DNA of 64,000 nucleotides. It comes from a virus. Lineage: Duplodnaviria; Heunggongvirae; Uroviricota; Caudoviricetes. Below the pieces are notes generated by a model. The model ran no database searches, was not told the DNA's origin, and saw nothing but the letters and a program-made list of their open reading frames with translations. A program made the translations under genes and the position numbers. Where the stretch lies: the IMG/VR virus record IMGVR_UViG_3300037067_027626. One strand, given 5' to 3'. Shown one piece after another: positions 31,132 to 47,011 of the stretch. Numbering within the stretch: the first letter of the stretch is position 1; the number at the start of each line of letters is the position of its first letter.

Positions 31132-31653
31132 TTAACCCTCCTTATAGTTCTGTAATTGCTTAGGTAATGAACTTCCGTATATAAATGACTGTTTAATTTC
31201 AGGTAATTTCACCAAGTCATAAAAATTATTATTTTCATCCTGTTCTTTTATTTGTATTAAACCCATGTGGCTAATCATAACGGAAATTAATTCTTCGATA
31301 GTTAACGATTCCTCCTTTAAATGATAAGCAAGAATTGGCGAATAAATACTTTTAAATACGCTTGCTATCATATGTTTGTTGTCGCAACTTTCCACAAATG
31401 AATCCACTACAATGTTATAAATTTCTCTAGGTGTAAAGTAACATTTTGGTGTCCAACTCCATCGCCACATGAAGTCAACTAATCTTTCATAGACGCTTAC
31501 ATTTTCGGGTTGCCCATAATGTCCTTTAGCAAAGAGAATCAAGTGTCCTGTTAAATCATACTCACCATAAACTACGGTATCTTTCATTTGTTTTCCTCCT
31601 TTAATTCTCTTGTCATTACATCTATATATTGTTCCATTACATCTATATACCAT
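31132..31653 (-). CDS. hypothetical protein
   Basis: A 173-aa ORF. Confidence 0.35.
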   Translation of the reverse strand: MVYRCNGTIYRCNDKRIKGGKQMKDTVVYGEYDLTGHLILFAKGHYGQPENVSVYERLVDFMWRWSWTPKCYFTPREIYNIVVDSFVESCDNKHMIASVFKSIYSPILAYHLKEESLTIEELISVMISHMGLIQIKEQDENNNFYDLVKLPEIKQSFIYGSSLPKQLQNYKEG

Positions 31654-32078
31654 TGATTAGCGGTCTTTATTAAGGCTTTAAAATCGTCAGGTCTAATGCC
31701 CTTGTCTACAATCGCATATTTTACGAAGTAAGGAATAACATTATCTTCACACATATTCCCTTGAATAAATTCCGCCTTGCAATCACAATCGTTATCTGTG
31801 AAAATTCCGCCAAATACTTTGGCTATATCCTTGAATATCTTGTGGCTTTGGTCGTCTGCACCCATTGATAATAAAGTGGCTGTACCGATTGGTGTGTGTA
31901 TATTAGAAAATACGTGTATCATTCTACCTAGTTTCTCTAATATGAAATTGAAGTAGCCGATAGAAGTATCGTGGTTTGATATTACTGTTACCTTTATGCC
32001 TTGTGTTCGCTCGATAACCTTTTTAATTTCATTCAATTTCCATTTACTGTTGAGATATAATTGTGTATCTACGCCCAT
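31584..32078 (-). CDS. hypothetical protein
   Basis: A 164-aa ORF. Confidence 0.35.
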   Translation of the reverse strand: MGVDTQLYLNSKWKLNEIKKVIERTQGIKVTVISNHDTSIGYFNFILEKLGRMIHVFSNIHTPIGTATLLSMGADDQSHKIFKDIAKVFGGIFTDNDCDCKAEFIQGNMCEDNVIPYFVKYAIVDKGIRPDDFKALIKTANQWYIDVMEQYIDVMTRELKEENK

Positions 32079-32092
32079 TTTTAATTCCTCCT

Positions 32093-32536
32093 TTAATTAT
32101 TTTCTGCGGTTTCTATTCGTGAAATTAAATCATGTATCGCTGTTTTAACTATGCCACTGTGTATCATCTGCTCTGATAGTGCTAAAGAGTTAAGTATAAT
32201 TGCCACTTCTTGCGAATTTAAGTTTATGTTTAAATTGCTTAATTGTTTTGCGTCATTGATTAAATTGTTGGTTTCATAATTGATTTGTTGTCTCTTGCGG
32301 TTGATTAAATGATTCTTTACGCTATCAAGATACCAAACGTACCATACAGAGCCTTCAGTATGTAATTTCTCTTTAATGGATTTCCAAGATTCGTTACCCC
32401 ATAATTTGCGGAGATAGGCTCTTGCGGATGTTCCCTTGAATTTCATTGCCTCACCGATTATAAGTCCTAAATCCTCACTAGCCCATTCCTCATCGCCAGT
32501 TTCCAGTGTCCAGACATCACTCATTTGTTGTGCCAT
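32093..32536 (-). CDS. hypothetical protein
   Basis: A 147-aa ORF. Confidence 0.35.
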   Translation of the reverse strand: MAQQMSDVWTLETGDEEWASEDLGLIIGEAMKFKGTSARAYLRKLWGNESWKSIKEKLHTEGSVWYVWYLDSVKNHLINRKRQQINYETNNLINDAKQLSNLNINLNSQEVAIILNSLALSEQMIHSGIVKTAIHDLISRIETAENN

Positions 32537-32747
32537 TTCTTTTAGCCTCCTTTGTTTTTAATTCAGTTAATTCATACCGAGCAATACGTTCTAATTGTTG
32601 TGAAACTTTTAGTTGTTCTTTTAGGTCTTTGAATCCCGAAATTAATTCGGTATAAGCATCACGGTATGATTCATAAAAGAAGTGGTCAGCCTTGAGAGTT
32701 TCATATTGTTTTCTATTTATAATTACGAATGGCAATTTAATTTTCAT
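32517..32747 (-). CDS. hypothetical protein
   Basis: A 76-aa ORF. Confidence 0.3.
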   Translation of the reverse strand: MKIKLPFVIINRKQYETLKADHFFYESYRDAYTELISGFKDLKEQLKVSQQLERIARYELTELKTKEAKRNGTTNE

Positions 32748-32854
32748 ATATCATACCTCATTTGTTTTAATGTGATAGTTCGTCTACTTCGGCTATGGCT
32801 TCACAATTAGTATTGTCATTAAAGATTGAAATGCGAGAGATATAGTAAATTTTT

Positions 32855-33010
32855 TCAGTCATTAAACGCCTTCTCACATACTATATAATTATGTTCAGTT
32901 ATAGACGGCGAAAACATACAAGTGCCGATTGATTCCCTCCATCCTTTAGGGATGTAATTTTTAATAAATTCCTGAAGTTCTATCGCTTTTTGGTATTTTT
33001 TATCATTCAT
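32855..33010 (-). CDS. small protein (51 aa)
   Basis: GGAGGCAAAAATAAT lies immediately upstream of the ATG. Hand-translated, so coordinates are approximate. Confidence 0.3.
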   Translation of the reverse strand: MNDKKYQKAIELQEFIKNYIPKGWRESIGTCMFSPSITEHNYIVCEKAFND

Positions 33011-33171
33011 ATTATTTTTGCCTCCTAGATTTCTTATTTTTACCTTTTACAATGATTCTTACTTCGGAATTCTTATTGGTGTTTTTATCATGGTGTCTAG
33101 TATAGGGTGTCAAAGATGGTGGCAACATTGTTAAACTTGATTTCATAAAACGCATAATTCAAAATCTCCTG

Positions 33172-33285
33172 TTAATTTTTATTAGCTCTTATCCAATCCG
33201 CCCAATCCCAAAAACTGATATTATAGAGTATACAGGATTGTAATATGAAATTGAGGAATTCCGCTTGAGTCTTAAATGCTATCAT
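33172..33285 (-). CDS. tiny hydrophobic peptide (37 aa)
   Basis: AGGAGGCAAAAATG ribosome-binding site. Translates to MIAFKTQAEFLNFILQSCILYNISFWDWADWIRANKN. Confidence 0.3.
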   Translation of the reverse strand: MIAFKTQAEFLNFILQSCILYNISFWDWADWIRANKN

Positions 33286-33295
33286 TTTTGCCTCC

Positions 33296-33388
33296 TTATA
33301 TTAATGAATTAATTAAAAATCCGAGTCCAATTAAAACTAAAGTAAAAATAGACCATGCTGTAAATTCAGTTAAAATCACTTTTACCAT
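33296..33388 (-). CDS. tiny TM peptide (30 aa)
   Basis: AGGAGGCGTAAATG ribosome-binding site. Translates to MVKVILTEFTAWSIFTLVLIGLGFLINSLI. Confidence 0.3.
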   Translation of the reverse strand: MVKVILTEFTAWSIFTLVLIGLGFLINSLI

Positions 33389-33397
33389 TTACGCCTC

Positions 33398-33481
33398 CTA
33401 TATAGGCTTATAATTATGGCAGTCATACCAAGTCATAAAGATAACTAGAAAAAAGATGATGCCAATGGTAAATAGAATCAT
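33398..33481 (-). CDS. tiny TM peptide (27 aa)
   Basis: AGGAGGCTCTATG ribosome-binding site. Translates to MILFTIGIIFFLVIFMTWYDCHNYKPI. Confidence 0.3.
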   Translation of the reverse strand: MILFTIGIIFFLVIFMTWYDCHNYKPI

Positions 33482-33500
33482 AGAGCCTCCTATTAGTAGA

Positions 33501-33839
33501 TTAATTTATGGGTAGCATTTGATTAATGCGGATAGATTGCACTAATCTGCTTTGATATAATTTTGCCTCATTATCCGAGATAACCACAGCTAAAAGTAGT
33601 GGCTCTATATTGTGTTTTTCCGCAAATTCCAATTTTCTCCTGAAACTGGAGTCCGAGATGTGTATTTTTTTATCTTTACTATTAGCAGATATGGCTTTTA
33701 CCTCAAAGCCATAATTATCCGTAATTACATCAAACGGAGACTTGAAACTTTGCCTTTGTTTAGCCTTGAGGAGAGTTAGAGCCTTACGGACTCCGACTCT
33801 CTCTAATTTGCACTTTGTACTTTGCCGACAACAGACCAT
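33501..33839 (-). CDS. PD-(D/E)xK-fold nuclease, possible Holliday-junction resolvase-like
   Basis: DVITDNYGFEVKAI is a D...ExK motif. The protein is basic and 112 aa long. Confidence 0.35.
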   Translation of the reverse strand: MVCCRQSTKCKLERVGVRKALTLLKAKQRQSFKSPFDVITDNYGFEVKAISANSKDKKIHISDSSFRRKLEFAEKHNIEPLLLAVVISDNEAKLYQSRLVQSIRINQMLPIN

Positions 33840-33876
33840 AGGCTATTTACTCCGATTCAGATTTGCCATTAGGGGA

Positions 33877-34038
33877 CTATTTAGCCTTGAGTAGTTTCGA
33901 GATTCGCTTTGAGGCTTCGGACTTTGAGATTTTTTCGCCATAGTTAGTTCTGTGTTCAAGTCGAGCTAATAAAGCTCGTTGTGAATCGGTAGCCTTGCCA
34001 GTTAGAACTTTGCCATTGAATTTAACTACTCTTACCAC
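33877..34038 (-). CDS. small basic protein (53 aa)
   Basis: AAGGAG lies 8 nt upstream of a GTG start. Hand-translated to VRVVKFNGKVLTGKATDSQRALLARLEHRTNYGEKISKSEASKRISKLLKAK. Confidence 0.3.
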   Translation of the reverse strand: MVRVVKFNGKVLTGKATDSQRALLARLEHRTNYGEKISKSEASKRISKLLKAK

Positions 34039-34084
34039 TTTTTTCTCCTTTTTTCTGCTATTAGCAGTGTTTATTAGAGCTTTC

Positions 34085-34220
34085 TACGCTCTCATTAGCA
34101 CAGGAAACCTCTTATTAGTAGTTAGGGATTTCCCTTTTAAACTTCTTAATAGGAGAATATCGAGCGCCTAAATTTTGTAAAAATAGGCGCATTTGTTCCT
34201 ATGCTAATGAGAGCGCACAA
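34085..34220. repeat. large inverted repeat (gctctcattagca / tgctaatgagagc) enclosing a gcgccta...taggcgc hairpin
   Basis: Perfect 13-bp inverted arms lie about 105 bp apart, and an inner 7-bp stem has an AT-rich loop. Confidence 0.5.
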
Positions 34221-35093
34221 GTTCATAATTCTTGTACGCTCTCAAATGGATTATGTTAAATTCTTCTGAACTTATCTATCAATTACCTTGCATGGTTAAA
34301 TAAAAGCATTTTAACCATAATCTATCATTCAATATAATCAGTATTGAACAATACCATGATTAATTTTAGTTGATAAGATTTCAACGTTAACATCATCAAG
34401 ACGTTTAAAACGTATTACTGCGATAATTTAACTACATAGATTAGTTGATTAGACTAACGTCTGAAATAATTCAATTCGGTAAAGCTGGTATAATGTTAAC
34501 CTTAAGTACAATATTTATTTTGGCGCATTATAAAATATTCGAGTGCTAAATATATATTGTCGTCATGGCTGTGACTATACTTAAAAGCATAATCAACGCA
34601 TAGCTATTTTCTTATATATTAGTGATGCGTAATTTTATAGCGCATAAATTGTACGATTTATTCAACGAATAATTTACAAACAAACGTTTAATAACTAACC
34701 TTAATAGAATCAAGTTTAGTAGCTTTTATTCGTTTGTCTGTAGCACTAACCACTCTAGGGAATTTATCCGTAGGTTGAGGTATCTCACAATTTAGTCTCA
34801 ACTATTCCGTGTTTCGTAATCATCCCTATTACATTGGTTTATCAACCCCGTCTGTGGTATCCTATTACGGTCTTGGTCTGGTATTGATTTGCTTTGAATA
34901 GTTAATATTCAGTGACTTGTTTCACTTTCGGTATCTAGTGCTATTCACTTGGAGAATTTGAGGGAGTGCGGGAAGGATTTCAACCTAGTTGAATCTATAT
35001 TCAATTACACTCAATATATAGTAGTAATTATTTTCTGTAAATATTCATGCCACATTTAAACTGTTATGGAATTATTACGGAATTTAGATACAA

Positions 35094-35196
35094 AATTCCA
35101 CATCTTAAAAATTCCACATCTTAAATTCTATAAAAATTTGCTTCAAAATAGGCTCAATTTAAAAATATTGGACTTTTTATATCAATTCCACATCTT
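35094..35196. repeat. 3 direct copies of aattccacatctt
   Basis: Copies at about 35094, 35110 and 35184. Confidence 0.5.
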
Positions 35197-35542
35197 TAGA
35201 ATTATGGCATTAGAATTTTGAGGTTATTTTGTGGCACATTCAACGATTTTATATCGGATAGTGTAAAGCATTACGCAATAATGAAAATAGTCTAAAATCG
35301 CAAAATAATGCCATTACAAACGATTTAAGATAATAGTTTTACTGGATTAATTGAGGGAATAATAACGGATTAAAATAATGAATAATGTTACCATCTTAAA
35401 ATTACTGGATAGTTTAACGGATATATTACGGATGATATAACGCAATTTTTAAAAATCTCATATATTCATAAATGAAGTAATACTACCCTATTTTAACAAA
35501 AAGCGAAAATCGGTATTTTAGCCTATATTTTCAATATGGCAT

Positions 35543-35700
35543 AAATACGCCTAATACGACTAGGCGTATCTAATACGACTAGGCGTATTAGGCGTATACT
35601 AGGCGTATCTTGTCTTATTCCCTATTCCCTCAAATATCGCAATTCCCTATTATCTCAATTTGTATCAATTCCCTATTGTTAAAATTCCCTATTCCCTATC
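35543..35700. repeat. iteron cluster: 2 copies of taatacgactaggcgtat, 4-5 copies of aggcgtat, then 6 copies of attccctat
   Basis: Dense short direct repeats in the pattern typical of iteron-type origins. Confidence 0.55.
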
Positions 35701-35790
35701 CGTTATATTAATGATGATATACCGCATCAGCCCGACTATCATTTTAGTTTGCTTCAATAAAAAATTATTTTCCGTAAATTTTTTGGAAGT

Positions 35791-35907
35791 CGCAAAAAGC
35801 ATCGTGCCTCCTATTTAGAGGTCGCCGTATGTTTTTGAACACTTTTTGAAGAAGATTTTAAGGAATTTTTAGAGACATCGCAAAGGCATCGTGTCTGCTA
35901 TTAAGAG
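35791..35907. repeat. two copies of a ~29-bp repeat cgcaaa[a/g]gcatcgtg[c/t]ct[c/g]ctatt[t/a]agag
   Basis: Copies at 35791-35820 and 35879-35907. Confidence 0.5.
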
Positions 35908-36136
35908 ATTTTTAAATAAATAATAAAATGATGAACATATAACTTATAATACTGGAATATTAAATATAAACCGCCATAGAGTTGTATAATATATGAATAA
36001 CAGCCATCGGATTGGATGGGTGATGATATATGAATACTTTACTTTTCTCCTATTAAGAAATACTTGACATTACCCATAATATAGTGCTACGTATTAATTA
36101 ATAGTTCTGTTAATAAGAGAATTATAGGGGAATAAT

Positions 36137-36307
36137 ATGACTGCAAAACAAAAGAAGCCTTGGATTCTAACAAGGGCACGTTCCGAAGCATTAAAAAAGG
36201 CACAGCTCACCCATGTAATTTTGATAAATATCGGCAAGAAGTATCGCAATAAAGAAATCAATAAGTTCCAATTCTTGAAGAAGAATAGACCTAATAAATC
36301 AAAATAA
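36137..36307 (+). CDS. tiny basic protein (56 aa)
   Basis: ATAGGGGAATAAT lies upstream of the ATG. The protein is Lys/Arg-rich. Confidence 0.4.
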   Translation: MTAKQKKPWILTRARSEALKKAQLTHVILINIGKKYRNKEINKFQFLKKNRPNKSK

Positions 36308-36321
36308 GGAGGATTGCTAAT

Positions 36322-36414
36322 ATGGCTTATACTAAAGCAGAGCGTAAAAAGGCGGCAAAGAAAGCCGTTGCCACTAAGCGTAAGAGATACGGCAAGAACT
36401 TAAAGAAGGGATAA
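36322..36414 (+). CDS. tiny basic protein (30 aa)
   Basis: AAGGAGG ribosome-binding site. Translates to MAYTKAERKKAAKKAVATKRKRYGKNLKKG. Confidence 0.4.
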   Translation: MAYTKAERKKAAKKAVATKRKRYGKNLKKG

Positions 36415-36452
36415 ATAAGTATTTCGGATAAATTATTAAAAAGGGAGAATGA

Positions 36453-36548
36453 ATGCCGAAAAGAAAACCAAACAATATGTCAAAGGAACAATGGGCAAAG
36501 GAAAAGACTCAGTGGTATACAGGGAAAGATAAAAAGAAGAAAAAATAA
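36453..36548 (+). CDS. tiny basic protein (31 aa)
   Basis: AAGGGAG ribosome-binding site. Translates to MPKRKPNNMSKEQWAKEKTQWYTGKDKKKKK. Confidence 0.4.
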   Translation: MPKRKPNNMSKEQWAKEKTQWYTGKDKKKKK

Positions 36549-36623
36549 CTTACTGAGCGTCATCAAATAAAATAAGCAAGATTCCTACGAAGCCCAAGGG
36601 CGACAGGAATATAGGGAGAATGA

Positions 36624-36761
36624 ATGCAAGCGTATTGTGTAAAATGTAAACACAAGAGGGAAATGAAAGCCCCAAAAGCCGTTAAAATGAAAAATGGAAG
36701 AAAGGCTACAAAGGGTAAGTGCCCTGTATGCGGAACGGGTATGTACCGTATAGGCGGATAA
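36624..36761 (+). CDS. small basic zinc-ribbon protein (45 aa, DUF5679-like)
   Basis: AGGGAGA ribosome-binding site. Has CVKC...CPVCG pairs separated by a K-rich linker. Confidence 0.45.
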   Translation: MQAYCVKCKHKREMKAPKAVKMKNGRKATKGKCPVCGTGMYRIGG

Positions 36762-36793
36762 TTCTGAGGGAAAATTTGTTCATTTATAAATAA

Positions 36794-36830
36794 GCCCCAT
36801 GATAATTAGTCGTGGGGTTTGTTTATTTTA
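36794..36830 (+). terminator. rho-independent terminator
   Basis: The stem gcccca...tgggg is followed by tttgtttatttta. Confidence 0.45.
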
Positions 36831-37254
36831 GTTGGATTTTTTAGTGAGACTGTCTAGTAAAATCATTCTGCAATAGGTGGTTAACTGCATACCCTTCTTC
36901 TCGGCTTCTACCTTCAATAACCCCTTTTCTCTCAAGGGCATACGTATGAAAACTACGGGCATGTCTTTCTTTCTATAGACCAATATAACACACCTCTATA
37001 TTTATACTGTGAAAAAACTAGCACATATTTAGCGTGTTGTCAAGTGGTCGTGCGTAAATATTTTTGCCCCAAAATACAATACTATATCACTTTGCTATTG
37101 TATTATTATTTTACTGTGTTATCCTACTACTTAAAAGGTACTACACTTGAATCTAAAGTTGGAGGTCTATTATTTTAAGAATATATGAAGGCTATTTTTG
37201 CATTAATCCTTGCGGCAATCGGACTTTACATAAATAAAATTGTGTCTTTGGGTA

Positions 37255-38566
37255 GTAATATCCATCGAATAACCACCCTAACTCTGGAAAAGCTAAACTC
37301 AATATTGAGCAAGCTAATCACAGAACTAAACACGAAAATGAATCGTGAAATGCGTGGAGGTCATATAGGTGGAATCCTTAAATGGGATTATGAGATGACC
37401 CGATACTCCAATAAAAATTGGAGATTAACAGATGAGGAGTCAACTTACTGCCAGGTCTTAATACAACTATAGCTACAATCACTACCCCCACGTGCATAAG
37501 TGCGTCTTTATAGAGTAATCTATATCGAAATTGCCCTAATTCGGTGAAGCCTAAAACGAGAGTCATGGTAATGCCGAGCCAAGCAGAATAGAAATATTCG
37601 GGCGTGTGTAGAGAACATAGAGGCAACCCCTAGTAATAGGGTGAAAACATGTTCCGTCACTCCGTGAAAGCGGAGATTACAGATAGATTCCACAGGGGTA
37701 AGATAATTTGCCCACTCATATAGTAATATGTGAGTTAAATTGCTCCAAATAGGGGGAAGCTAAAAACCGTAAGGTTCATGCTAATCGCCTAACTAAACTA
37801 GAGAATGAATCTAGGAAACTGATGACAGACTAGACGGAGCAAGTCCTGAATAGGACTAAGGTATAGTCGGACACTCCGAATAAATTCGGAGACTAACAAG
37901 TGAAGTGGCATGGTGGGTGTTACGTAATGAAAGATTTGCGTCTTTATAGAGTAATCTATATTGAAAAGAACCACAAATTCGGGGAAAGCTAAAACGAAAG
38001 TCATGCTAACCGCCGAACTAAACTGCTGAATGAAGGCAGGATAAGCGTAGAGAGTAGATGTGGTTGCCCTTTAATTAGGGATAAGGTGTACTCCGACACT
38101 CTAAAGAAATTTGGAGATTAACAAGTGTAATCGTATAATAAGCGAATGCGACCTTTAATAGTGATATTAATTGAATAACCGCCCTAACTCTGGGAAAGCT
38201 AAAATGAAAGTCATGCTAACCGCAGAACTAAATTACCGAATGAAGGTATAAATGCGTAGAGAACATATAGGCGGGGTCTTACGAAAGACCGTGAGATGTT
38301 CCGATACTCATACGAAAGTAAGAGATTAACAAAAAATTCGCAGCCATGTTGGTAGTCCTGAGAACAATCGGGACTTTGAACAGTAATGTTCATCGAATAA
38401 CGCATCAAATTCGGGGAAGCCTAAACTCAATAATGAGCATGGTAATCGCCGAGCTAAACCAAGGAATGAACTTGGGAAACTGTGGACAGACTAGATGGTG
38501 CGAATCCCTATAAATGGGATTGTGGTATAGTCGGGCACTTAACGAAAGTTAAGATTACAGAATCGG
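37255..38566 (+). ncRNA. array of 6 tandem ~180-245-nt structured RNA-like units (unclassified)
   Basis: Unit spans are approximately 37261-37430, 37501-37683, 37722-37900, 37935-38125, 38152-38335 and 38375-38566. Conserved blocks are ggRaagcYuaaa, RgYCAUGSUAAYCGCCGARCUAAA, a hairpin with loop GAAUGAA, and a 3' GAGAUUAACA. Hairpin stems covary between units: ctgc/gcag, tacc/ggta, ccaag/cttgg, ctaga/tctag, cacg/cgtg. A second hairpin covaries as ctcaa-tat-ttgag, aacc-gtaa-ggtt and ctca-ataa-tgag. Two subtypes exist (units 3 and 6 versus units 2, 4 and 5). Confidence 0.55.
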
Positions 38567-38627
38567 ATTGTAGCCGCCATGAGAGAGTCATTCTCCATGT
38601 AAAGTTGTATCCATTTGTGGTGGTAAA

Positions 38628-38665
38628 AGAGAGCGAGTAGAAATATTCGCTCTCTTTTTATTTAT
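38628..38665 (+). terminator. rho-independent terminator closing the RNA array
   Basis: The stem agagagcga-gtagaaatat-tcgctctct is followed by ttttatttat. Confidence 0.55.
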
Positions 38666-39020
38666 AGAAGTATTCCTTAATTCTATTGGCTATTTCTGAT
38701 ATTGGGTGTTTTTTAACTTCGTGTTCCCATAATATCAATGTTTTATAACCACGCTCTAATAAGAATTTCATTCTACCATTATATTTTTGATGTTCTTTTA
38801 GGCGAGGGTTATTATCGTTGTGATGATAATCTCCAAAATGTTCTATGAGCCAATTATGTTGTTTATGTTTGAAATCGGGTAATTTACCATCTATATCTTC
38901 TTCTGGGTTATAACCAATAAATTCCCACTCATTAGGGAAGTATGCGCCATTGATAACCACAATTATCACAGAGATATGCTTGGAGATATTGTTTTTTACC
39001 TTTACTCCATTTTGTTCTTT
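38658..39020 (-). CDS. DUF559/Vsr-like endonuclease domain protein
   Basis: DFKHKQHNWLIEHFGDYHH...RMKFLLERGYKTLILWEHEV matches the DUF559 C-terminal signature. The start is taken at the internal Met. This ORF overlaps 38932..39681 in another frame. Confidence 0.4.
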   Translation of the reverse strand, partial: KEQNGVKVKNNISKHISVIIVVINGAYFPNEWEFIGYNPEEDIDGKLPDFKHKQHNWLIEHFGDYHHNDNNPRLKEHQKYNGRMKFLLERGYKTLILWEHEVKKHPISEIANRIKEYFYK

Positions 39021-39681
39021 TCCCATATTTATAGATTTTATCGCTTGTTTGGCATTTAGGACATATTTTTGTAGGCAATTCTTCTGATAGGCTTTCATAT
39101 TCGTCTTTTGGAATATACGTATCGCCATCCAATTTAACGTGTTCCATGGGATATAGTTTATCGGTTTCATAGTTATATTCAGACACATTTTTATATTTGC
39201 CACGTTTATAATCCGACGGCATATAGAATGTTTTACCAGTCGATGTGTCCATATAGCGCTGAACTTTACCACCCCTGCGGGGAATTTCTCCGACTTTACG
39301 ATACCGTTTCAGTTCTGTATTTATTGGTTCGGTTATTTCTACTTTTGGATTTTTTTTAAAAGCATTCGGGTTATATTGTGGTTTCATTGGTAATTCTGGA
39401 ACATTATTAACTATCGAATTATTTTGTGTAAATAGATTAGAATTAATCAAACTTCGGTTAGAAAGTTGCCATTTTATAGCCTCCTCAATTGTTTTATGGC
39501 GTGGTTTAGATAGATTGCATTTATGGTGCATGACTGCTAAATTATTAGCTTCAAACTCGCCCCCGTTGCATCTATCTATAATATGCCCTAAATCATAAGA
39601 ATCATAATCCACTTCTGCGTTACACACCCAACAGATTCCTTTATCACGTCTGTAAATACCTATCCTTAAATTATCACTCAT
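38932..39681 (-). CDS. HNH endonuclease with C-terminal InsA/IS1595-like zinc ribbon
   Basis: The N-terminus has CWVC...DLGHIIDRCNGG...NL.VMHHKCN. The C-terminus has CPKCQTSDKIYKYGKRTKWSKGKKQYLQAYLCDNCGYQW. Confidence 0.45.
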   Translation of the reverse strand: MSDNLRIGIYRRDKGICWVCNAEVDYDSYDLGHIIDRCNGGEFEANNLAVMHHKCNLSKPRHKTIEEAIKWQLSNRSLINSNLFTQNNSIVNNVPELPMKPQYNPNAFKKNPKVEITEPINTELKRYRKVGEIPRRGGKVQRYMDTSTGKTFYMPSDYKRGKYKNVSEYNYETDKLYPMEHVKLDGDTYIPKDEYESLSEELPTKICPKCQTSDKIYKYGKRTKWSKGKKQYLQAYLCDNCGYQWRILP

Positions 39682-39993
39682 TTTTATTTATCACCACTAT
39701 CATCTTTTATTGATTTTTCTATTGCTTTAGTAATTAAATATTTTAGATATTCTAATTCAGTTAAATTTAATTTTTTGGCTAACATAGAAAGATTTTCATA
39801 CATTTTTTCGGATATGGTTAGAATGATTCTTTTGCTCATAATTTATTACCTCCTGATATATTAATAGTATATACTAGGTTACTAAATATGTCAATAGGGT
39901 GACTTATTATATATTTGACAAGACTCATTACCTGTGCTTTAGTGTAATTAAATACATAAATAAATAAATGAAATTAAGTATGTGGAAGATACA

Positions 39994-40128
39994 ATGTTAA
40001 TATGTCCGAAGTGCGGTAGTTCAAGAGTAGTCAAACTAGGTTTTATCCCTACTATTCATGGGGAAAAACAGAGATATAGATGTCATAAAGGGCATACATT
40101 TTATGCGAAAAAAGACTATAAAAGATAA
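39994..40128 (+). CDS. small InsA/IS1595-like zinc-ribbon protein (44 aa)
   Basis: Translates to MLICPKCGSSRVVKLGFIPTIHGEKQRYRCHKGHTFYAKKDYKR. Confidence 0.35.
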   Translation: MLICPKCGSSRVVKLGFIPTIHGEKQRYRCHKGHTFYAKKDYKR

Positions 40129-40143
40129 TGAGGAATTTTATAA

Positions 40144-40446
40144 TTGTTTAAGATAGTTAAGAAATACTATAAGAAACCAAGACGGGGCGAACCTATTATA
40201 AGATATAAAGCTAAGGATTCTAATGAGAATTTCAGATTAGATAAGGGCGATAAAATAATAATAAGAATAGACCCTGCATTAAAAAAGAGACGGGATATTG
40301 AGCGTTCCTTAATGAAGCATGAGAAAACCGAATTAATGCTCAGGGCAAAGGGGGTAAAACTGAATAAAGCCCACAGGATTGCTAGAAGCAAAGAACCTAA
40401 ACTTACCCGTAATAAAAGTTTAAATGACATCTGGAAAATGCTCTAA
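40144..40446 (+). CDS. small basic protein (100 aa)
   Basis: K/R-rich sequence with a TTG start per the ORF track. Confidence 0.4.
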   Translation: MFKIVKKYYKKPRRGEPIIRYKAKDSNENFRLDKGDKIIIRIDPALKKRRDIERSLMKHEKTELMLRAKGVKLNKAHRIARSKEPKLTRNKSLNDIWKML

Positions 40447-40466
40447 TAAATTAGGAGGCAAATTTT

Positions 40467-40652
40467 ATGCCGATAACCGATGAACTGGACATAGACAACA
40501 TATTCAGTGGGAAAAAGAAAGTTCCTTTAGAGGGAGAAATTAACAGTACCGATAACTACCCTAGATTAGACATAATGGGCTTGGCGAGAAAAAAGAGAAA
40601 GAAAACCACTGTAAGACGCAGGACTGTAAAAAGACACTGCAAACGAAAATAA
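40467..40652 (+). CDS. small basic protein (61 aa)
   Basis: TAGGAGGCAAATTTTATG start context. The C-terminus reads KKRKKTTVRRRTVKRHCKRK. Confidence 0.45.
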   Translation: MPITDELDIDNIFSGKKKVPLEGEINSTDNYPRLDIMGLARKKRKKTTVRRRTVKRHCKRK

Positions 40653-40673
40653 AAATAATTAGGAGGAATTTCA

Positions 40674-40823
40674 ATGGCTAAAAAGAAACAAAAGGCAACT
40701 AAACAAAAGGCAATTTTTGCGGATTCAATATTTGCAAAACTGGATGCAAAAGACAAGCAGATGACAGCATCTATAGGTAAAATGGATAATGCCTTTAAAA
40801 TGCACAAGAAAAAGGGGGATTAA
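40674..40823 (+). CDS. tiny basic protein (49 aa)
   Basis: TTAGGAGGAATTTCAATG start context. Begins MAKKKQKATKQK. Confidence 0.4.
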   Translation: MAKKKQKATKQKAIFADSIFAKLDAKDKQMTASIGKMDNAFKMHKKKGD

Positions 40824-40825
40824 TA

Positions 40826-40939
40826 ATGGCGAACAAAAAGAACAGTTATTTCGGCAATTTTCTCAAGTCCATAGAGAAAAAAGAAAAGAGAATCAACACT
40901 AAACTTAATGCAACTACCAAGAAACTCTTGAGGAAATAA
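40826..40939 (+). CDS. tiny basic protein (37 aa)
   Basis: AAGGGGGATTAATAATG start context. Confidence 0.4.
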   Translation: MANKKNSYFGNFLKSIEKKEKRINTKLNATTKKLLRK

Positions 40940-40956
40940 TTTTAAGAAGGTGCTGT

Positions 40957-41160
40957 ATGAGTATATACGCTTTACCGAGAAAGAAGAAATTTCCTTTAGG
41001 GAGCAAAAAACAGGCGATTTCTGCTGTAGCCTATGCGGTTAAATTAGCTAGACCTGAATATAAGAAAATTACACCGCAAGAACGAGATATTGTGTTACGG
41101 AAGGTTCATTCTCGCTATCCTAGTATAAATATTAGTCCAATAAGAAGAAGGAAAAAATAA
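40957..41160 (+). CDS. small basic protein (67 aa)
   Basis: K/R-rich and ends RRRKK. Confidence 0.4.
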   Translation: MSIYALPRKKKFPLGSKKQAISAVAYAVKLARPEYKKITPQERDIVLRKVHSRYPSINISPIRRRKK

Positions 41161-41748
41161 TTGAAGTGCGGTAGGTGTTCGTCAGTTAATATAGGTAAAG
41201 GGGGGGAAGACCGTTTTCATCGGCAGTTATGGTTATGCAGGGATTGTGGTTTTAGGTCAACTAATGTTGAAAATTATAACCATGTAAATTCAGTTATTGC
41301 TAAGATGCCACCATTAAAGAAGTTGTGGTCAAGAATAACGATAGATGAAAATAAGGGGTGTTGGAATTGGCAAGGTAAGCCTGATACGGAAGGATATGGA
41401 GAAGTAAGGATTTCTAGTCAACTTTATAAAGCCCATGTTTATTATTACCAAATATTTGAAGGAGTTATTCCAGAGGGTTTGGAGTTAGACCATCTATGCC
41501 GAAATCGTATTTGTGTAAATCCGAAACATTTAGAACCCGTGACGCATCAAGTGAATGTTTTACGAGGGAAAAGTCCTCAATCAATTAATGCTCTTAAAAC
41601 GCATTGTATTCATGGGCATATATTATCAGTAGAAAATACATATGAATCTAGTAGAAATAATTTCAAGTATAGGCAATGTAAAATATGTACTAGGGAAAGG
41701 GCTAAAAGATATTTGTTGGATAAAAAGCAATTAATACTAACAGTTTAA
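41161..41748 (+). CDS. HNH endonuclease with N-terminal zinc ribbon
   Basis: Contains GCWNWQGKPDTEGYGEVRI...LELDHLCRNRICVNPKHLEPVTHQVN, the classic HNH motif. The N-terminus has CGRC...CRDCG. Confidence 0.6.
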   Translation: MKCGRCSSVNIGKGGEDRFHRQLWLCRDCGFRSTNVENYNHVNSVIAKMPPLKKLWSRITIDENKGCWNWQGKPDTEGYGEVRISSQLYKAHVYYYQIFEGVIPEGLELDHLCRNRICVNPKHLEPVTHQVNVLRGKSPQSINALKTHCIHGHILSVENTYESSRNNFKYRQCKICTRERAKRYLLDKKQLILTV

Positions 41749-41777
41749 TAATAACGAGCAAAATAGTTGGAGGCAAA

Positions 41778-41885
41778 ATGAAAAGGGCTGGTGGCAGTTC
41801 ATACAAGAATACTAAAGAAAGAAAATGGTTGGCGGAATACGATAAAAAACACCCCAAAGATAAAGAGATAAGAGGGAAGAAATAA
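41778..41885 (+). CDS. tiny basic protein (35 aa)
   Basis: TTGGAGGCAAAATG start context. Confidence 0.35.
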   Translation: MKRAGGSSYKNTKERKWLAEYDKKHPKDKEIRGKK

Positions 41886-41888
41886 TAA

Positions 41889-42296
41889 ATGCCAACAATG
41901 ATACCTAAATATACTGTTAGAGAATCTTATTATAAGCGTTCTCGACCTGACGAGTCGCCAATGAAGAATAGTGTAGAGGTGAGATGGTATACGCAAAAAC
42001 CCTCTCGGTCTAATAAACTATCTAAACCTAAAAAGGTGTGGTTGCCCCAAGTAAAGATGACTGTCAAGAAAGACCCTATATTAAAGAAATATCCTAAGAT
42101 AGAAAAAGAGGGCATGAAGCACGAACTTAGAGAAATGAAGGCGATATGGAAATATCGCCATCTGAATAAAACTGAGAGGGGCGATAAGGCTCATAAAGAA
42201 GCTAAGGCAAAAAATCCTTCATGGTTAAGTCCTGCTATCAATAAAATGAGGGAAGAACAGAAGAACCCTAATTGGCGTAAAAGTAGGTGGGGATAA
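41889..42296 (+). CDS. basic protein (135 aa)
   Basis: K/R-rich throughout. Confidence 0.4.
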   Translation: MPTMIPKYTVRESYYKRSRPDESPMKNSVEVRWYTQKPSRSNKLSKPKKVWLPQVKMTVKKDPILKKYPKIEKEGMKHELREMKAIWKYRHLNKTERGDKAHKEAKAKNPSWLSPAINKMREEQKNPNWRKSRWG

Positions 42297-42313
42297 AAAT
42301 AAGGAGCAAATAA

Positions 42314-42487
42314 ATGGGCAATAAAAAGAAAACAGGCAAGAGGAAAATAGATGTAAAGAACCTTCATTTGGGTGAGCAGTGGTCGCCTAAAAGCAAAGAC
42401 CCGATATACAGACAACTATCTAATAAGGATAAGAAGATGAAAAGCTCCTTAACAAAATTAGATAGAATTGGAAGAATTAAAAAATAG
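42314..42487 (+). CDS. tiny basic protein (57 aa)
   Basis: AAGGAGCAAATAAATG start context. Confidence 0.4.
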   Translation: MGNKKKTGKRKIDVKNLHLGEQWSPKSKDPIYRQLSNKDKKMKSSLTKLDRIGRIKK

Positions 42488-42497
42488 GAGCAAAATT

Positions 42498-42614
42498 ATG
42501 GGATTCAAGGAAAATTTAGAAGCGAGTTTTAAGGGAGCAGACAAACTTGGTAGTGACCTTATTAAGGATGGTAAAAATCTAGGCAAAAAGAAGAACAAAC
42601 GTAAGGGGAAATAA
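42498..42614 (+). CDS. tiny basic protein (38 aa)
   Basis: ATAGGAGCAAAATTATG start context. Confidence 0.4.
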   Translation: MGFKENLEASFKGADKLGSDLIKDGKNLGKKKNKRKGK

Positions 42615-42615
42615 A

Positions 42616-42723
42616 ATGGCTAAAGGGAAGTATAAAGACTATGGGCGTTCTAGGGTATATGAGCCGAAACGTAAGAAAGAAAGAACACTCAGTAGTAAGG
42701 TAAAAACTTATAAATCAAAATAA
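42616..42723 (+). CDS. tiny basic protein (35 aa)
   Basis: TAAGGGGAAATAAAATG start context. Confidence 0.4.
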   Translation: MAKGKYKDYGRSRVYEPKRKKERTLSSKVKTYKSK

Positions 42724-42735
42724 GGAAGCAAAATT

Positions 42736-43221
42736 ATGGCAAAGAGATTATCTGATACTATGAAACGCCAACGGGCTGAAGCAAAAAGAATGAAGGCTGA
42801 AATGCGTCAGCGTGAGAAAGCAAGAAAACAAGATGCGGTTAAGCGTCAGAGAGCCGAAGATAGATTAATAAAGTTACAGGAAAAGATTAGAATAAAGAGG
42901 GAAAAGGATAGATTACGACAGGCTGAGAGAGAAGCAAAAAATAGACAGAAACAGATTGAAAGAGAAGCAAAAAAACGACAAAAGCAAGAAGAAGAAGGGC
43001 GGAGAAAAGCCCTTACAGCCTTTACTAAACAACAGGAAGCAAATAGAAAACGTGCAAGACAAGAAGCCGAGAGAAAAAAGTTAAACGAAAGACACAGTAA
43101 GGCAACCTCAGTGTTATGGGGTTCTCCACGTTCTGAAAAGGAACGTAGGACTAATATCACAAAGAATAAAGCAGTAGTAAGAAAAGTAATGCACAAACTA
43201 AAGAGGAAATTAATCTGGTAG
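42736..43221 (+). CDS. highly basic K/R/E coiled-coil protein (161 aa)
   Basis: TAAGGAAGCAAAATTATG start context. Contains an RQRAEAKRMKAEMRQREKARK-type repeat. Confidence 0.5.
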   Translation: MAKRLSDTMKRQRAEAKRMKAEMRQREKARKQDAVKRQRAEDRLIKLQEKIRIKREKDRLRQAEREAKNRQKQIEREAKKRQKQEEEGRRKALTAFTKQQEANRKRARQEAERKKLNERHSKATSVLWGSPRSEKERRTNITKNKAVVRKVMHKLKRKLIW

Positions 43222-43225
43222 GTAT

Positions 43226-46200
43226 ATGATAAAAAAACTCCATTACAATAAATATTTGAGGATTTTACTAACCGCCTTTATATTGGCGGTTTTATGTATT
43301 CCCTCTTTACCTTTATTCCATATAAATCTGTTTGATGTGCCAGTTGGTGCGGCTACAAGGGATTTATATTGGATTGGCGGTAGTGGTGATTGGAGCGATA
43401 CGGCAAATTGGTCATTAACATCAGGAAATTCTGATAATAGTTCACCTCAAGTTGTACCAGATTCAGATGATAATGTGTATTTTGACGCTAATTCAGGGTT
43501 TACGGGGATTAGTAGGACAGTAACAATGAATAGTTCTCCTGGTTATTGTCTTGATATGGACTGGACAGGTGCGCCGAATAATCCAATATTTAATAGACAA
43601 AATAATGCGGATTTATATATTTATGGCTCGCTGACCTTGATTGCGAGTATGACATTTGATGCTGTAGCGGCTAATGGTCGAATTGGTTTTCTGTCTACCT
43701 CTGCGGGCGAAACAGTAACCACCGCAGGAGTAAATCTCAACAATGTGTTATACGGTATGGAATTTGCTGGTAATGGTGGTGAGTGGACATTACAGGATGA
43801 GCTGACTGTTTCTAGTATCACACATACTAAAGGCATTTTAGATACCAATGACCAAACAATCAACTGCAAGGGTTTTTTTACTACTGGCAGTAATGCTAGA
43901 GAGTTAATACTAGGTAATTCCACAATAAATATATCGAATACTGGGTACTTTCAATATACTGGTTCTAATTTAACATTGGGTGAGGGAACTTCAAGTATTA
44001 TAACAGATGGTACGTCTGGAACTTGTAAGTTTTATGGTAATGGCGAAACTTATTATGATGTTCAATTAATCAATGTCCACTCATTATCAACTACCGACAA
44101 TAGTCTCATCAGTGGGGCAAATACTTTTACAACTCTAAGTATTAGCGGGGATGCTTCCACTGGATATACTACTAACATAGATGCAAATCAAATCATCACA
44201 GGTACTCTAACTATTGCAGGTGATTCTGCTGTAAACCGTTTATTAATTCGTTCAGATACCATCGGAACGGCACGTACTTTAACAGCCGCAACCGTAACGG
44301 TATCTAATGCGGATTTTCAGGATATAACGGGTGCTGGTACTGCTTCTTGGAATTTATCTGCAATAACGGGGAAATCAGGCGACTGCGGAGGTAATTCAGG
44401 AATTACCTTTACTACTGCCGATAATATGTATTGGAGCAAAAATAACGGGGCATGGACAGACCCCGCTAATTGGTTCTTAGCGACTAACGGCGGCGGTGGT
44501 GCTGGCAGAGTTCCATTACCTCAAGATACTGCAATATTTGACGCAAATTCCTTTGATGACACGGGTAAAATAGTTACCATAGTTGATAATTATAGAGTTG
44601 GAGATATTGACGCTTCGGGTGCTACGTTTGCACCTACATTCGGTAGTGGCGATTTTAATGTATTAGTCTATGGTTCGATAACATGGGGTGCTATGGATAT
44701 TCACGCCAGTATAGATTGGTTCTTTTATAGCAGGTATAGTGAAACATTAACCTCAGCGAGTAAGACTTTCCCTGATATTACAATCGGTAGCACAAGCGGT
44801 GATGGTATAAGCGGTACATTAACCTTGCAAGATGCCCTTACGTCAAGCGGTATCGTAACTTTGAATAGAGGCACACTAGATTTCAACGACCAGAATGTAA
44901 CTATGGCAACATTCGATTCATCTACTAATACCTATACACGTACTTTATCAATGGGTGATGGCGAAATTACAGTAAACTCAACTGCCGCAGTAAATAAATG
45001 GAATATAGCAACAGGGAGTTTCACGCTTAATAAAGATAACTCGACTTTAATCCTAACTAACTCAGGGACTAACGCACAATCAATTACAGGCGGTGGCAAA
45101 ACATATGATGGTTTAACAATCAAAGGTGCTGGTGTTTATACACTAACATTCAATGATGCGAATACATGGAATACAATGTTAATTGACCGTTCTGAAGCAG
45201 CAAAGACAATCGCTGGCAATGTTATTCAAACTGTTACAAATTTAACAATACCAGTTTCAGGAACAACACAAGTAACTATTACTAATGTTGATTTTGTTAA
45301 ATCTTCTGGAACTGTTGCTTTGGGTTATGTGACAATATCAGGTTCAGTTGTCGATGGTGTCGGTAGTGGTGCAGCGTTTTATGCAGGTGCAACTCCACCA
45401 TCGGTTAATGGTGGTTCTAACTCAGGTTGGAACTTTACAGAACCTTCTGACCCTATCTTAACTACTTTAGGGGCAAGTGAAGTATCATTTTACACTGCAA
45501 AATTAAATGGTGTTCTGGATAGTATGGCAGGACAACCTAATGGTTATATTTCTTTTCAATATAGTACAGACCCCGCATATCCTAGTGATTCTACAGTAGT
45601 ATCAAGCGGAGAATATACAACACTCCCAGGTGAGTTCTTTTATAATATTACATCAGGACTTTCCGCAGGAACTACATATTACTTTCGCATAAGATTCTAC
45701 TATGGTACTACTTATGCTTATGGTTCTACGGTGTTTTTTACGACAGCAGGCGGTACTGGTGTACCTACTGTAATAACGGGTTCAGCCACTAATCCCACAT
45801 CAAGCACAATAACTTTACAAGGTGTAGTAACGGATATGGGTGGCTATACTACCGTGAATCTGTACTTTGATTATGGGGTTACTGCTTCTTATGGCGATAA
45901 TATTACTGCTACCGTACCTACGGCAACTGACATAGGTGCTTTCTCTGTTAAATTAACGAATTTACAAATGAAAACCACTTATCATTTCAGGGCAAAAATC
46001 GGTTATATTGTATCAGGTGTAGAAATATTCGCTTATGGTGCTGATGGTACTTTTACAACTACCATAACAAGCGGAACGGATAGTGGTGGTCAGCCTTTAC
46101 CTAATCTTATATCACAGATATTCAATGGAGGAGTATTTAGTTCCTTTCTTGAAAGTAATGATTTATTATTTATAGCGGAAATTGCTAATACTTATGCAGA

Positions 46201-47011
46201 TAACACTACTAATAAATATTATCCTAACGGCAACATTTCTAAATTATTTGTATTACAGTTAGTCAATACCGATGGCAGTACGGTTTTAGCCCAAGTACCC
46301 TTGAGAGATTGGGGCTTAAAACCCATTTCTATATACATGAATGCCTCAACATCAAGTAATATGACTTTGGGCGAAAATTATATATTAAGACTACACGCTT
46401 TATTCACTGCCTCACCACCTACCGATGTAGATTATACACTTCAGGATGACGATTGGTATGGTAATGATATGAACTCCCTTGATTTCTGGTGTGTATCAGT
46501 AGCAGGAGAGATGAATACCTACTATAGTTTATGGGGCAAAACGGGTTCAATGCTCACTAATACCATAGATAAAGGGGCAATCATCAGTCAGGATGGTACG
46601 GGATACTTCGTTGAGGGAATTCCCGAAATAGATTATGTCAGACCCGATTTATTCTATGCGGTTTCCTCTAAACCTATCTTTACTACAGGAACAGGCACAA
46701 ACGCTTTTGCGGCAAACCATATCTGGACTTCACAGGTAGGTACAAAAATTGCCGCAGACTTTACAACATTCGGGGGATTGTTTGATGTAAACGGCTCAGA
46801 AATGATGGGATGGCTAATTGGTCTGATTATCATATTTATCGTGATATTCTGTGTATCGCAGGGAAGCGGTGCTTTGGGCGGTCTTGTGCTGTGCGTTCCT
46901 TTCCTGATTGCGGGCAATCTATTGGGTGCTATAGGTATACAGATAACGGTAGTCGGCTGTATTCTTTGCTCATTTTTCTTTATAAGGCAGTTTATAATTA
47001 AAACGCTATGA
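43226..47011 (+). CDS. giant surface protein (1261 aa) with N-terminal signal/anchor, beta-helix-like G/T/S-rich repeats and C-terminal TM helices
   Basis: WSDTANW and WTDPANW motifs are typical of right-handed beta-helix (PbH1) repeats. The C-terminal ~70 aa form two hydrophobic helices. Confidence 0.45.
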   Translation: MIKKLHYNKYLRILLTAFILAVLCIPSLPLFHINLFDVPVGAATRDLYWIGGSGDWSDTANWSLTSGNSDNSSPQVVPDSDDNVYFDANSGFTGISRTVTMNSSPGYCLDMDWTGAPNNPIFNRQNNADLYIYGSLTLIASMTFDAVAANGRIGFLSTSAGETVTTAGVNLNNVLYGMEFAGNGGEWTLQDELTVSSITHTKGILDTNDQTINCKGFFTTGSNARELILGNSTINISNTGYFQYTGSNLTLGEGTSSIITDGTSGTCKFYGNGETYYDVQLINVHSLSTTDNSLISGANTFTTLSISGDASTGYTTNIDANQIITGTLTIAGDSAVNRLLIRSDTIGTARTLTAATVTVSNADFQDITGAGTASWNLSAITGKSGDCGGNSGITFTTADNMYWSKNNGAWTDPANWFLATNGGGGAGRVPLPQDTAIFDANSFDDTGKIVTIVDNYRVGDIDASGATFAPTFGSGDFNVLVYGSITWGAMDIHASIDWFFYSRYSETLTSASKTFPDITIGSTSGDGISGTLTLQDALTSSGIVTLNRGTLDFNDQNVTMATFDSSTNTYTRTLSMGDGEITVNSTAAVNKWNIATGSFTLNKDNSTLILTNSGTNAQSITGGGKTYDGLTIKGAGVYTLTFNDANTWNTMLIDRSEAAKTIAGNVIQTVTNLTIPVSGTTQVTITNVDFVKSSGTVALGYVTISGSVVDGVGSGAAFYAGATPPSVNGGSNSGWNFTEPSDPILTTLGASEVSFYTAKLNGVLDSMAGQPNGYISFQYSTDPAYPSDSTVVSSGEYTTLPGEFFYNITSGLSAGTTYYFRIRFYYGTTYAYGSTVFFTTAGGTGVPTVITGSATNPTSSTITLQGVVTDMGGYTTVNLYFDYGVTASYGDNITATVPTATDIGAFSVKLTNLQMKTTYHFRAKIGYIVSGVEIFAYGADGTFTTTITSGTDSGGQPLPNLISQIFNGGVFSSFLESNDLLFIAEIANTYADNTTNKYYPNGNISKLFVLQLVNTDGSTVLAQVPLRDWGLKPISIYMNASTSSNMTLGENYILRLHALFTASPPTDVDYTLQDDDWYGNDMNSLDFWCVSVAGEMNTYYSLWGKTGSMLTNTIDKGAIISQDGTGYFVEGIPEIDYVRPDLFYAVSSKPIFTTGTGTNAFAANHIWTSQVGTKIAADFTTFGGLFDVNGSEMMGWLIGLIIIFIVIFCVSQGSGALGGLVLCVPFLIAGNLLGAIGIQITVVGCILCSFFFIRQFIIKTL

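Follow-up and report, generated by a model that had tools for sequence, protein, structure and literature searches.

The phage systems that most resemble the loci described here are the early control region and the replication origin of phage lambda, and the untranslated repeat region of phage T5. In lambda, the early operons run outward from OL/PL and OR/PR, which carry several near-palindromic sites, and each leader contains one oriented copy of a signal (nutL or nutR). In the established lambda arrangement of the origin, iterons lie in the linker-coding part of O and are followed by an AT-rich stretch. Some phages, e.g. lactococcal phage c2, have an intergenic origin that lies between early and late promoters pointing away from each other. 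The injection-stop region (iss) of T5, an untranslated, repeat-rich stretch of 1662 bp within the long terminal repeat, shows conservation across T5-like phages and does not serve as an origin; eight paired DnaA boxes are found in it (bioRxiv 10.1101/866236). We analyzed a gene-free region, in the following called the gap, at positions 34039-36136 of a 64,000-nucleotide (nt) stretch of a tailed phage genome (IMG/VR record IMGVR_UViG_3300037067_027626; the whole stretch is referred to as the window). From its sequence, we give about even chances to the reading that the gap is a cis-acting control region with divergent promoters and operators and with additional protein-binding arrays. The gap is probably not the primary origin of replication. 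It shares with lambda the outward early operons, the several near-palindromic sites and the oriented copy in each leader. Unlike in lambda, about 2 kb lie between the two operator sets, without a repressor gene and with only non-coding repeat arrays, and the conserved folded left leader of 200 nt has no lambda counterpart.

A sequence-only reading of the window had described 33840-36130 as free of open reading frames (ORFs) of 60 amino acids (aa) or more, located at a strand switch. This holds for both strands according to the ORF list, where the longest frames of that interval encode 58 aa (33995-34171, plus strand), 53 aa (33877-34038, minus strand), 52 aa and 51 aa. The 53-aa frame is the first gene of the leftward operon. 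It has an AGGAG site and a GTG start, is likewise predicted as a gene on a contig assembled independently (Logan contig L001), and its homologues hold the same position in the related contigs L003 and L004. Its match to Pfam DUF3072 is weak (E = 2e-4, below the curated cut-off). Given this ribosome-binding site and conservation, the true gap is therefore 34039-36136, which is 2098 nt with a guanine-cytosine (GC) content of 30.3%, compared with 36.0% for the window. With 52 aa, the longest ORF of the gap is as long as expected from shuffles of matched composition (63 ± 14 aa), so that the gap behaves as non-coding sequence. Its striking feature is the interruption of gene density, not ORF length. 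The strand switch is present as well: some 80 genes are read to the left from 34038, and another gene set is read to the right from 36137, starting with a basic 56-aa protein (36137-36307, plus strand) whose homologues show 57-76% identity. The genes flanking the gap encode proteins of 53, 112 and 56 aa, none of them with an assigned function.

The gene content of the window is phage-like and includes two Rep_O paralogues, a DnaC-like loader, YopX, HNH endonucleases, DUF5131 and a PAPS reductase. A flanking protein was also found on a JGI contig of 124,964 nt and on the 25-kb contig L001, which reads uninterrupted across the gap and ends within a ribozyme array at window position ~37352. The phage is about 125 kb in size and belongs to an uncharacterised lineage. 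No close relative of it was found in INPHARED, IMG/VR, PLSDB or the GTDB genomes. The gap DNA gave no match to INPHARED phages and PLSDB plasmids with megablast and blastn, and scans of IMG/VR with DNA patterns and flanking proteins revealed no relative of the gap. Scans of GTDB genomes yielded no relative except an AAA+ match with 25% identity in a Nitrospirae metagenome-assembled genome. A pattern scan of metagenomes returned three matches, which share no similarity with the window and were rejected as chance. A 353-aa protein located 5 kb left of the gap was discarded as an anchor for comparison, its homologues occupying unrelated phage contexts. Short contigs related to the left side (L002, L003 and L004) were found via the 112-aa flanking gene (53-88% protein identity), and two contigs related to the right side (L018 and L019) via the 56-aa flanking gene (74-76% identity). 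That these five contigs end in the gap equivalent, and L001 in the ribozyme array, may be due to repeats or to low coverage and have no biological meaning. A scan for transfer RNA genes found none.

At the right edge, a putative rightward promoter region spans 36047-36119 (plus strand). It contains a copy of a 13-bp motif (36047-36059), a TTGACA -35 element (36065-36070), a weak -10 element TACGTA (36089-36094) and, immediately ahead of the ribosome-binding site, another copy of the motif within the leader (36107-36119). For the right half of the gap a global three-way alignment was unreliable and local comparisons were used. The TTGACA element is conserved in three lineages (window, L018 and L019) at 45-70 nt upstream of the first rightward gene. 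L019 reads TTGACA-17-TACAAT followed by CTTAATAAGAG, and L018 reads TTGACA-16-TATATG followed by TCTCTTATCTGGAGATT; both have a better -10 element than the window. Further upstream, a module of about 30 nt (26-32 nt, 85% identity), GCAAArGCATCGTGyCTsCTATTwAGAG, occurs twice on the plus strand within 35791-35909, with copies at 35795 and 35882. Both copies end in the 13-bp motif (35808-35820 and 35895-35907). Positions 720-749 of L018 align with the module at 81% identity.

The 13-bp motif, a near-palindrome with the consensus CTsyTAwTAAGAG, is absent from the list of repeats in the sequence-only reading. Eight of its nine matches in the window fall within 33487-36119. Each edge of the gap carries three to four copies, which are always directed outward (minus strand on the left, plus strand on the right), and one copy overlies the beginning of the rightward leader. 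In each of the five related fragments the motif is located upstream of the flanking gene and co-oriented with it. A copy between the rightward -10 element and the ribosome-binding site is common to the window and L019; in L018 the variant TCTCTTATCTGGAGATT is found there. The palindromic form suggests a dimeric DNA-binding protein. Because of the constant outward orientation, a role in the RNA leaders is possible too. Among the ORFs nearby, two of 51 aa (36828-36983 and 39684-39839, both minus strand) show sub-threshold matches to ribbon-helix-helix (RHH) families (NikA-like, DUF6290 and RHH_5). These two putative RHH proteins are possible candidates for binding the 13-bp motif or the repeat arrays described below. 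An HTH_17 protein is also present among the 103 ORFs scanned.

At the left edge, the relatives share a conserved stretch of about 330 nt ahead of the first leftward gene. Read on the minus strand, this region contains a candidate sigma-70-like promoter at 34250-34282 (TAGATA-17-CATAAT or TTGATA-18-TAACAT), found by consensus scan. It ends a few nt before a hairpin, and L003 has TTAATA-17-TATAGT at the aligned position. This hairpin, P1 (34208-34244), has a stem of 13-14 bp and a conserved TTATGA loop. It is followed by the P2 domain (34082-34220), which is closed by two long arms of 25 nt (34082-34106 and 34196-34220) that are 88% complementary, with 14 nt perfect. P2 encloses a hairpin GCGCCTA...TAGGCGC at 34164-34190, as well as another hairpin bearing two copies of the 13-bp motif (34109-34121 and 34143-34155). 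The nested inverted repeat noted by the sequence-only reading is thus present. A perfect 13-bp palindrome, CTGCTAATAGCAG, which is a variant of the edge motif, lies just upstream of the ribosome-binding site (34055-34067, minus strand). On the other side of the candidate promoter, a hairpin termed P0 (34292-34318; ATGGTTAAA / TTTAACCAT) is conserved in L003. Its loop reads TAAAAGCAT on the plus strand and ATGCTTTTA on the minus strand of the leader.

Three lineages each fold independently into the same layout, which is P1, an abutting P2 closing a branched domain, and then the ribosome-binding site. The z-scores of the leader folds are -9.1, -4.3 and -6.1 in the three lineages, the window fold covering 34078-34246. 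The P1 stems of 12-14 bp are unrelated in sequence across the lineages, yet carry the same TTATGA loop. The 21-bp P2 helix is retained in L003 and L002, with 8 pairs altered on both sides. When 29 predicted pairs were followed through the three-way alignment, 90.8% of the cells paired, compared with 38-52% when the partners were slid. Changes on both sides were found for 12 pairs, compared with 5.0 ± 1.5 in shuffles, and 0 of 500 shuffles reached 12. With three sequences only, this covariation is supportive of the leader fold but not conclusive. Since pairing is retained despite sequence drift, the structure is expected in a single strand, and it is most simply read as an RNA leader, given its position between a promoter-like site and a ribosome-binding site. 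Rfam gave no match within 33840-36136, either at the gathering score or at E ≤ 1. L002 lacks the arm sequence common to P1 and P2, and a switch by alternative pairing of the two was therefore rejected.

The right part of the gap is occupied by direct repeats. The four families named by the sequence-only reading are all found there, and none of their motifs recurs in the rest of the 64 kb. AATTCCACATCTT is present three times on the plus strand (35094, 35110 and 35184; block 35094-35196). An AT-rich stretch with about 24% GC follows at 35281-35520, with scattered ACGGAT and ATATAACGCAA motifs, the latter common to L018. The TAGGCGTAT array (35545-35608, plus strand) consists of four forward copies and one reverse copy and includes a perfect tandem 19-mer, CTAATACGACTAGGCGTAT, twice at 35551-35588; it forms imperfect palindromes, ATACGaCTAGGCGTAT, with a fold z of about -4.9 on both strands. 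The ATTCCCTAT array (35617-35699, plus strand) has five exact copies and one degenerate copy and includes two back-to-back pairs of the heptad ATTCCCT. The spacings are 16 and 74 nt for AATTCCACATCTT, 19, 9 and 11 nt for TAGGCGTAT, and 7, 18, 26, 16 and 7 nt for ATTCCCTAT. Exact 8-mer clusters (at least three copies within 150 nt) were found 24 times, compared with about one expected, and are essentially confined to 35094-35700 and 5866-6600. The part between P0 and the first repeats (34330-35060) is a variable spacer, where no repeats, no conservation in L003 and no significant folding were detected except at 34630-34780.

In the relatives, repeat arrays are kept as arrays with lineage-specific sequence at 190-590 nt upstream of the first rightward gene, those of L018 and L019 lying at 190-330 nt. 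L018 carries CCGCCGTAT five to seven times with a spacing of 12-16 nt, as the positional counterpart of the window TAGGCGTAT array. L019 carries GACGCCAATAAG three times within a perfect 24-nt duplication, followed by TTATGTAA four times. This order mirrors that of the window, where the TAGGCGTAT array with its perfect 19-nt duplication is followed by the ATTCCCTAT array, the positional counterpart of TTATGTAA. L019 also has ATTCCACAATTCCATAG and then the same TTATGGCA..TTTTGAG block that stands beside the AATTCCACATCTT repeats of the window. Because the arrays of L018 and L019 mirror the window layout with repeats of their own, the arrays are conserved as a feature and lineage-specific in sequence, and they expand through local duplication. 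The sequence-only reading had also pointed to a partial T7 promoter. The 10-nt match, TAATACGACT, is real; we judge it to be coincidental because the equivalent arrays read CCGCCGTAT in L018 and GACGCCAATAAG in L019 and no RNA polymerase was matched. RNA-polymerase families gave no match among the 103 ORFs scanned, nor in the 1261-aa and 2813-aa proteins, which were scanned separately. PDB sequence searches with the 2813-aa and a 1061-aa protein, made with a virion RNA polymerase in mind, found no match either. A T7-like promoter was thus rejected.

Taken as a divergent control region, the gap would direct transcription of both genome arms outward. On the left, the promoter-like site at ~34250-34282 would give rise to a leader of about 200 nt with P1, the 21-bp P2 and the branched domain, leading to the ribosome-binding site and the first leftward gene. 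On the right, the duplicated module, here 30 nt, and the conserved TTGACA promoter would stand ahead of the first rightward gene. The likeliest role of the 13-bp motif would be that of an operator for a dimeric phage regulator which co-ordinates both operons; alternatively, it may be an RNA-level signal in both leaders, like the lambda nut sites. The AATTCCACATCTT, TAGGCGTAT and ATTCCCTAT arrays would most simply be co-operative sites for one or more further DNA-binding proteins, with the nearby putative RHH genes as candidates. At the level of sequence, the divergent promoters of the earlier reading are supported by the diverging genes, by the TTGACA kept in three lineages and by the 13-bp motif that flanks both operons; near-palindromic sites lie beside both promoters and are conserved in the relatives. 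The folded leader and the outward 13-bp motif are concrete handles on early gene control.

Several observations weigh against this control region. The left-edge promoter is a consensus match, while at the right edge TTGACA is kept in three lineages and the -10 element of the window is poor. A promoter scan found 24 sites compared with 21.7 in shuffles, which is no excess. We infer the transcription starts at both edges from the sequence, as we do protein binding and the regulatory outcome. No regulator is tied to any of the motifs, the RHH matches being below the Pfam thresholds. Folding energies leave undecided the strand of P1 and P2, and whether they form in RNA or in single-stranded DNA. 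About 700 nt in the middle of the gap (34330-35060) are not explained by a control region and are not conserved. The repeat arrays beside a stretch of 24% GC also resemble an origin or a partition site. All comparisons were made with five short, low-coverage fragments (L002, L003, L004, L018 and L019), none of which spans the gap. A further point concerns replication: the iteron cluster described below is found only in the downstream one of two Rep_O genes and is lacking in the upstream paralogue of 205 aa.

Replication most likely starts at a lambda-type origin within the Rep_O gene, at about 6.4-6.8 kb, rather than in the gap, as judged from the following features. Two tandem Rep_O paralogues are encoded on the minus strand (6267-7118 and 7100-7717), which are 65% identical over the first 110 residues, the DNA-binding domain. 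Their N-terminal domains match Pfam PF04492 (E = 7e-21 and 4e-20), and in tblastn residues 5-103 of Rep_O are 33-37% identical to P22 gene 18 and lambdoid O. The 283-aa gene (6267-7118) carries the origin signature at 6401-6800 (minus strand), and the second of the two sites of 8-mer clustering falls in it. From codon ~112, right after the N-terminal domain, 10-12 TGACAC-centred repeats follow with a period of about 15 nt (6609-6800). Exact TGACAC copies number 20 in the window, 7 of them in 6623-6783. In the direction of transcription, ATCTTTTGTA repeats (6551-6612) come after this cluster, and 6401-6620 is the stretch with the lowest GC content of the window (18.5-22%). The loader gene lies immediately downstream (5243-6385, minus strand) and matches IstB_IS21, Bac_DnaA and the PHROG DnaC-like helicase loader. 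An O-family initiator, iterons in the linker-coding portion of its gene followed by an AT-rich stretch, and a loader immediately downstream are thus all found together, as in the origin within lambda O and P22 gene 18. Lambda has four 19-bp iterons, compared with the more numerous short repeats here; its loader is P, whereas a DnaC/IstB-like protein takes this place here, and the two tandem O paralogues are a further difference.

The sequence-only reading had proposed an iteron-type origin in the gap. Such an origin, main or second, at which an initiator (perhaps the 205-aa Rep_O paralogue) binds the arrays and melts the AT-rich neighbour, is in our view unlikely, but deserves consideration. 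Its dense direct repeats are specific to the locus, and arrays kept as arrays with lineage-specific sequence are expected if they co-evolve with a binding protein. In L018 and L019 the spacing is about one helical turn (11-12 nt), and AT-rich regions of about 24% GC lie beside the arrays (35281-35520 and 34981-35220). The existence of a second Rep_O paralogue with a similar DNA-binding domain fits as well. Clustered direct repeats next to an AT-rich stretch are also seen in pSC101, R6K and P1 oriR. Unlike these origins, the gap has several unrelated short families (7-13 bp) whose spacing is irregular (7-26 and 74 nt), and it lacks both DnaA boxes and a rep gene next to it. No single phased iteron of 17-22 bp is present in at least four copies. 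The Rep_O genes, at 6267-7717, are about 27-28 kb away, and the downstream one has its own iterons and the most AT-rich DNA of the window, as in lambda and P22. The gap has no copy of TGACAC. A DnaA box (TTATCCACA, at most one mismatch) was found nowhere in 31274-42288, the consensus used being that of E. coli, which may not be the host's. With the same limit on the consensus, AATTCCACATCTT was rejected as a DnaA box. Cumulative GC skew, which had been suggested as a check, indeed has its minimum at 35-36 kb. However, this minimum coincides with the switch in gene orientation, and in the single opposite-strand block of the right arm (39-40 kb) it is the coding strand there that sets the skew. 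The skew is therefore not independent evidence on replication and gives no separate support to an origin in the gap. Where the initiator gene bears its own iterons, a gene-free, repeat-rich strand switch should not be annotated as an origin. If the lineage is to be annotated, the start of replication and the control of early transcription are the first step, as it has no close match in the databases.

The T5 iss region is the best precedent for a cis-acting site for genome ends or DNA entry, i.e. a terminal-repeat boundary, a packaging region or an iss-like site. It resembles the gap as an untranslated repeat region (region 3/iss) whose layout is better conserved than the neighbouring genes and which does not act as an origin (bioRxiv 10.1101/866236). 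A linear genome that ends here would be expected to have both arms transcribed away from the gap, which is the case, and all five related contigs end inside the gap equivalent. However, short contigs that end nearby are expected by chance, and the Logan assembly is continuous across the gap. The paired DnaA boxes of T5 are absent, there is no sign of a terminal repeat, and similarity to T5-like phages was not seen at the protein level. There is no terminase gene nearby, with only a weak match to a small terminase at 58 kb. We therefore regard a role in genome ends or DNA entry as improbable. A centromere-like partition site of a plasmid-prophage, with an RHH protein bound to short direct repeats that overlap a promoter, is hardly credible. 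The contiguous heptads (ATTCCCTATTCCCT) and the 9-13-bp direct repeats upstream of a promoter, together with two small putative RHH genes within 4 kb, recall R1 parC/ParR and the omega heptads of pSM19035, where direct repeats of 7-11 bp, some of them contiguous, lie upstream of or overlap the promoter. Unlike in those systems, no partition ATPase was found here, and the RHH proteins are candidate binders of the arrays. No ParA, ParM or ParB family was detected among the 103 ORFs scanned, and the window showed neither an integrase nor plasmid-type functions; the matches to RHH families are sub-threshold, and there is no similarity to any PLSDB plasmid.

The very strong conserved fold at 34078-34246 could also point to free-standing non-coding RNAs, beyond a 5' leader, as the main content of the gap. 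A second structured patch (34630-34780, minus strand, z about -3.8) and the structured-RNA array just rightward (37180-38570) would agree with this. However, no Rfam match was obtained at E ≤ 1, no convincing terminator was found inside the gap, and the fold z is near 0 over most of it. The structure moreover sits exactly between the promoter-like site and the ribosome-binding site of the first gene, as a leader does, so that such RNAs are very improbable as the main content. A multi-protein DNA landing pad, of a kind so far undescribed for this clade of roughly 125-kb phages, can also be imagined, and is doubtful too, though worth keeping in mind. Its fast-evolving arrays would be a second origin for the extra Rep_O paralogue or a site for DNA entry or segregation, and the P1/P2 leader would be a new cis-acting RNA, e.g. 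for processive antitermination of the leftward operon, which spans 34 kb and has more than 75 genes.

In addition to the gap, the window contains an array of structured RNA units 1 kb further right (37180-38570, plus strand). It consists of six tandem diverged units of about 190-250 nt each with 60-80% identity. Five of the six match the Rfam group I intron family RF00028 with 66.6, 54.4, 39.7, 34.4 and 19.4 bits (gathering score 50); Rfam default filters on the full window had missed the array. The first unit, U1, has no Rfam match at E ≤ 1 and was assigned by in-register alignment with the other five. Terminal P9-like hairpins co-vary across all six units. Only ~9-60 nt separate the units, and in the longest spacer each of the three frames contains a stop; therefore, the array does not interrupt a single ORF. 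Excision of the first unit would leave an ORF of 32 aa. A strong terminator follows the array at 38630-38665. INPHARED contained no DNA similar to the array, and a literature search found no report of such an array. This six-unit, group I intron-like array seems possibly more unusual than the gap, and a group I-type ribozyme array of this kind merits a separate study.

Genes for HNH-type endonucleases are located at 10800-11417 (minus strand), 38658-39681 (minus strand) and 41161-41748 (plus strand). One HNH gene pair lies directly downstream of the ribozyme array on the opposite strand. On the plus strand, 36137-36550 and 40144-43221 contain a run of tiny Lys/Arg-rich ORFs (30-160 aa) with ribosome-binding sites, and a DUF5679 zinc-ribbon protein is encoded at 36624-36761. 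Two very large proteins of 1261 aa (43226-47011, plus strand) and 2813 aa (48318-56759, plus strand) have no Pfam or PHROG match, and the larger one has no significant PDB sequence match. An ORF of similar length, 2802 aa, is also present in an unrelated phage contig (L014).

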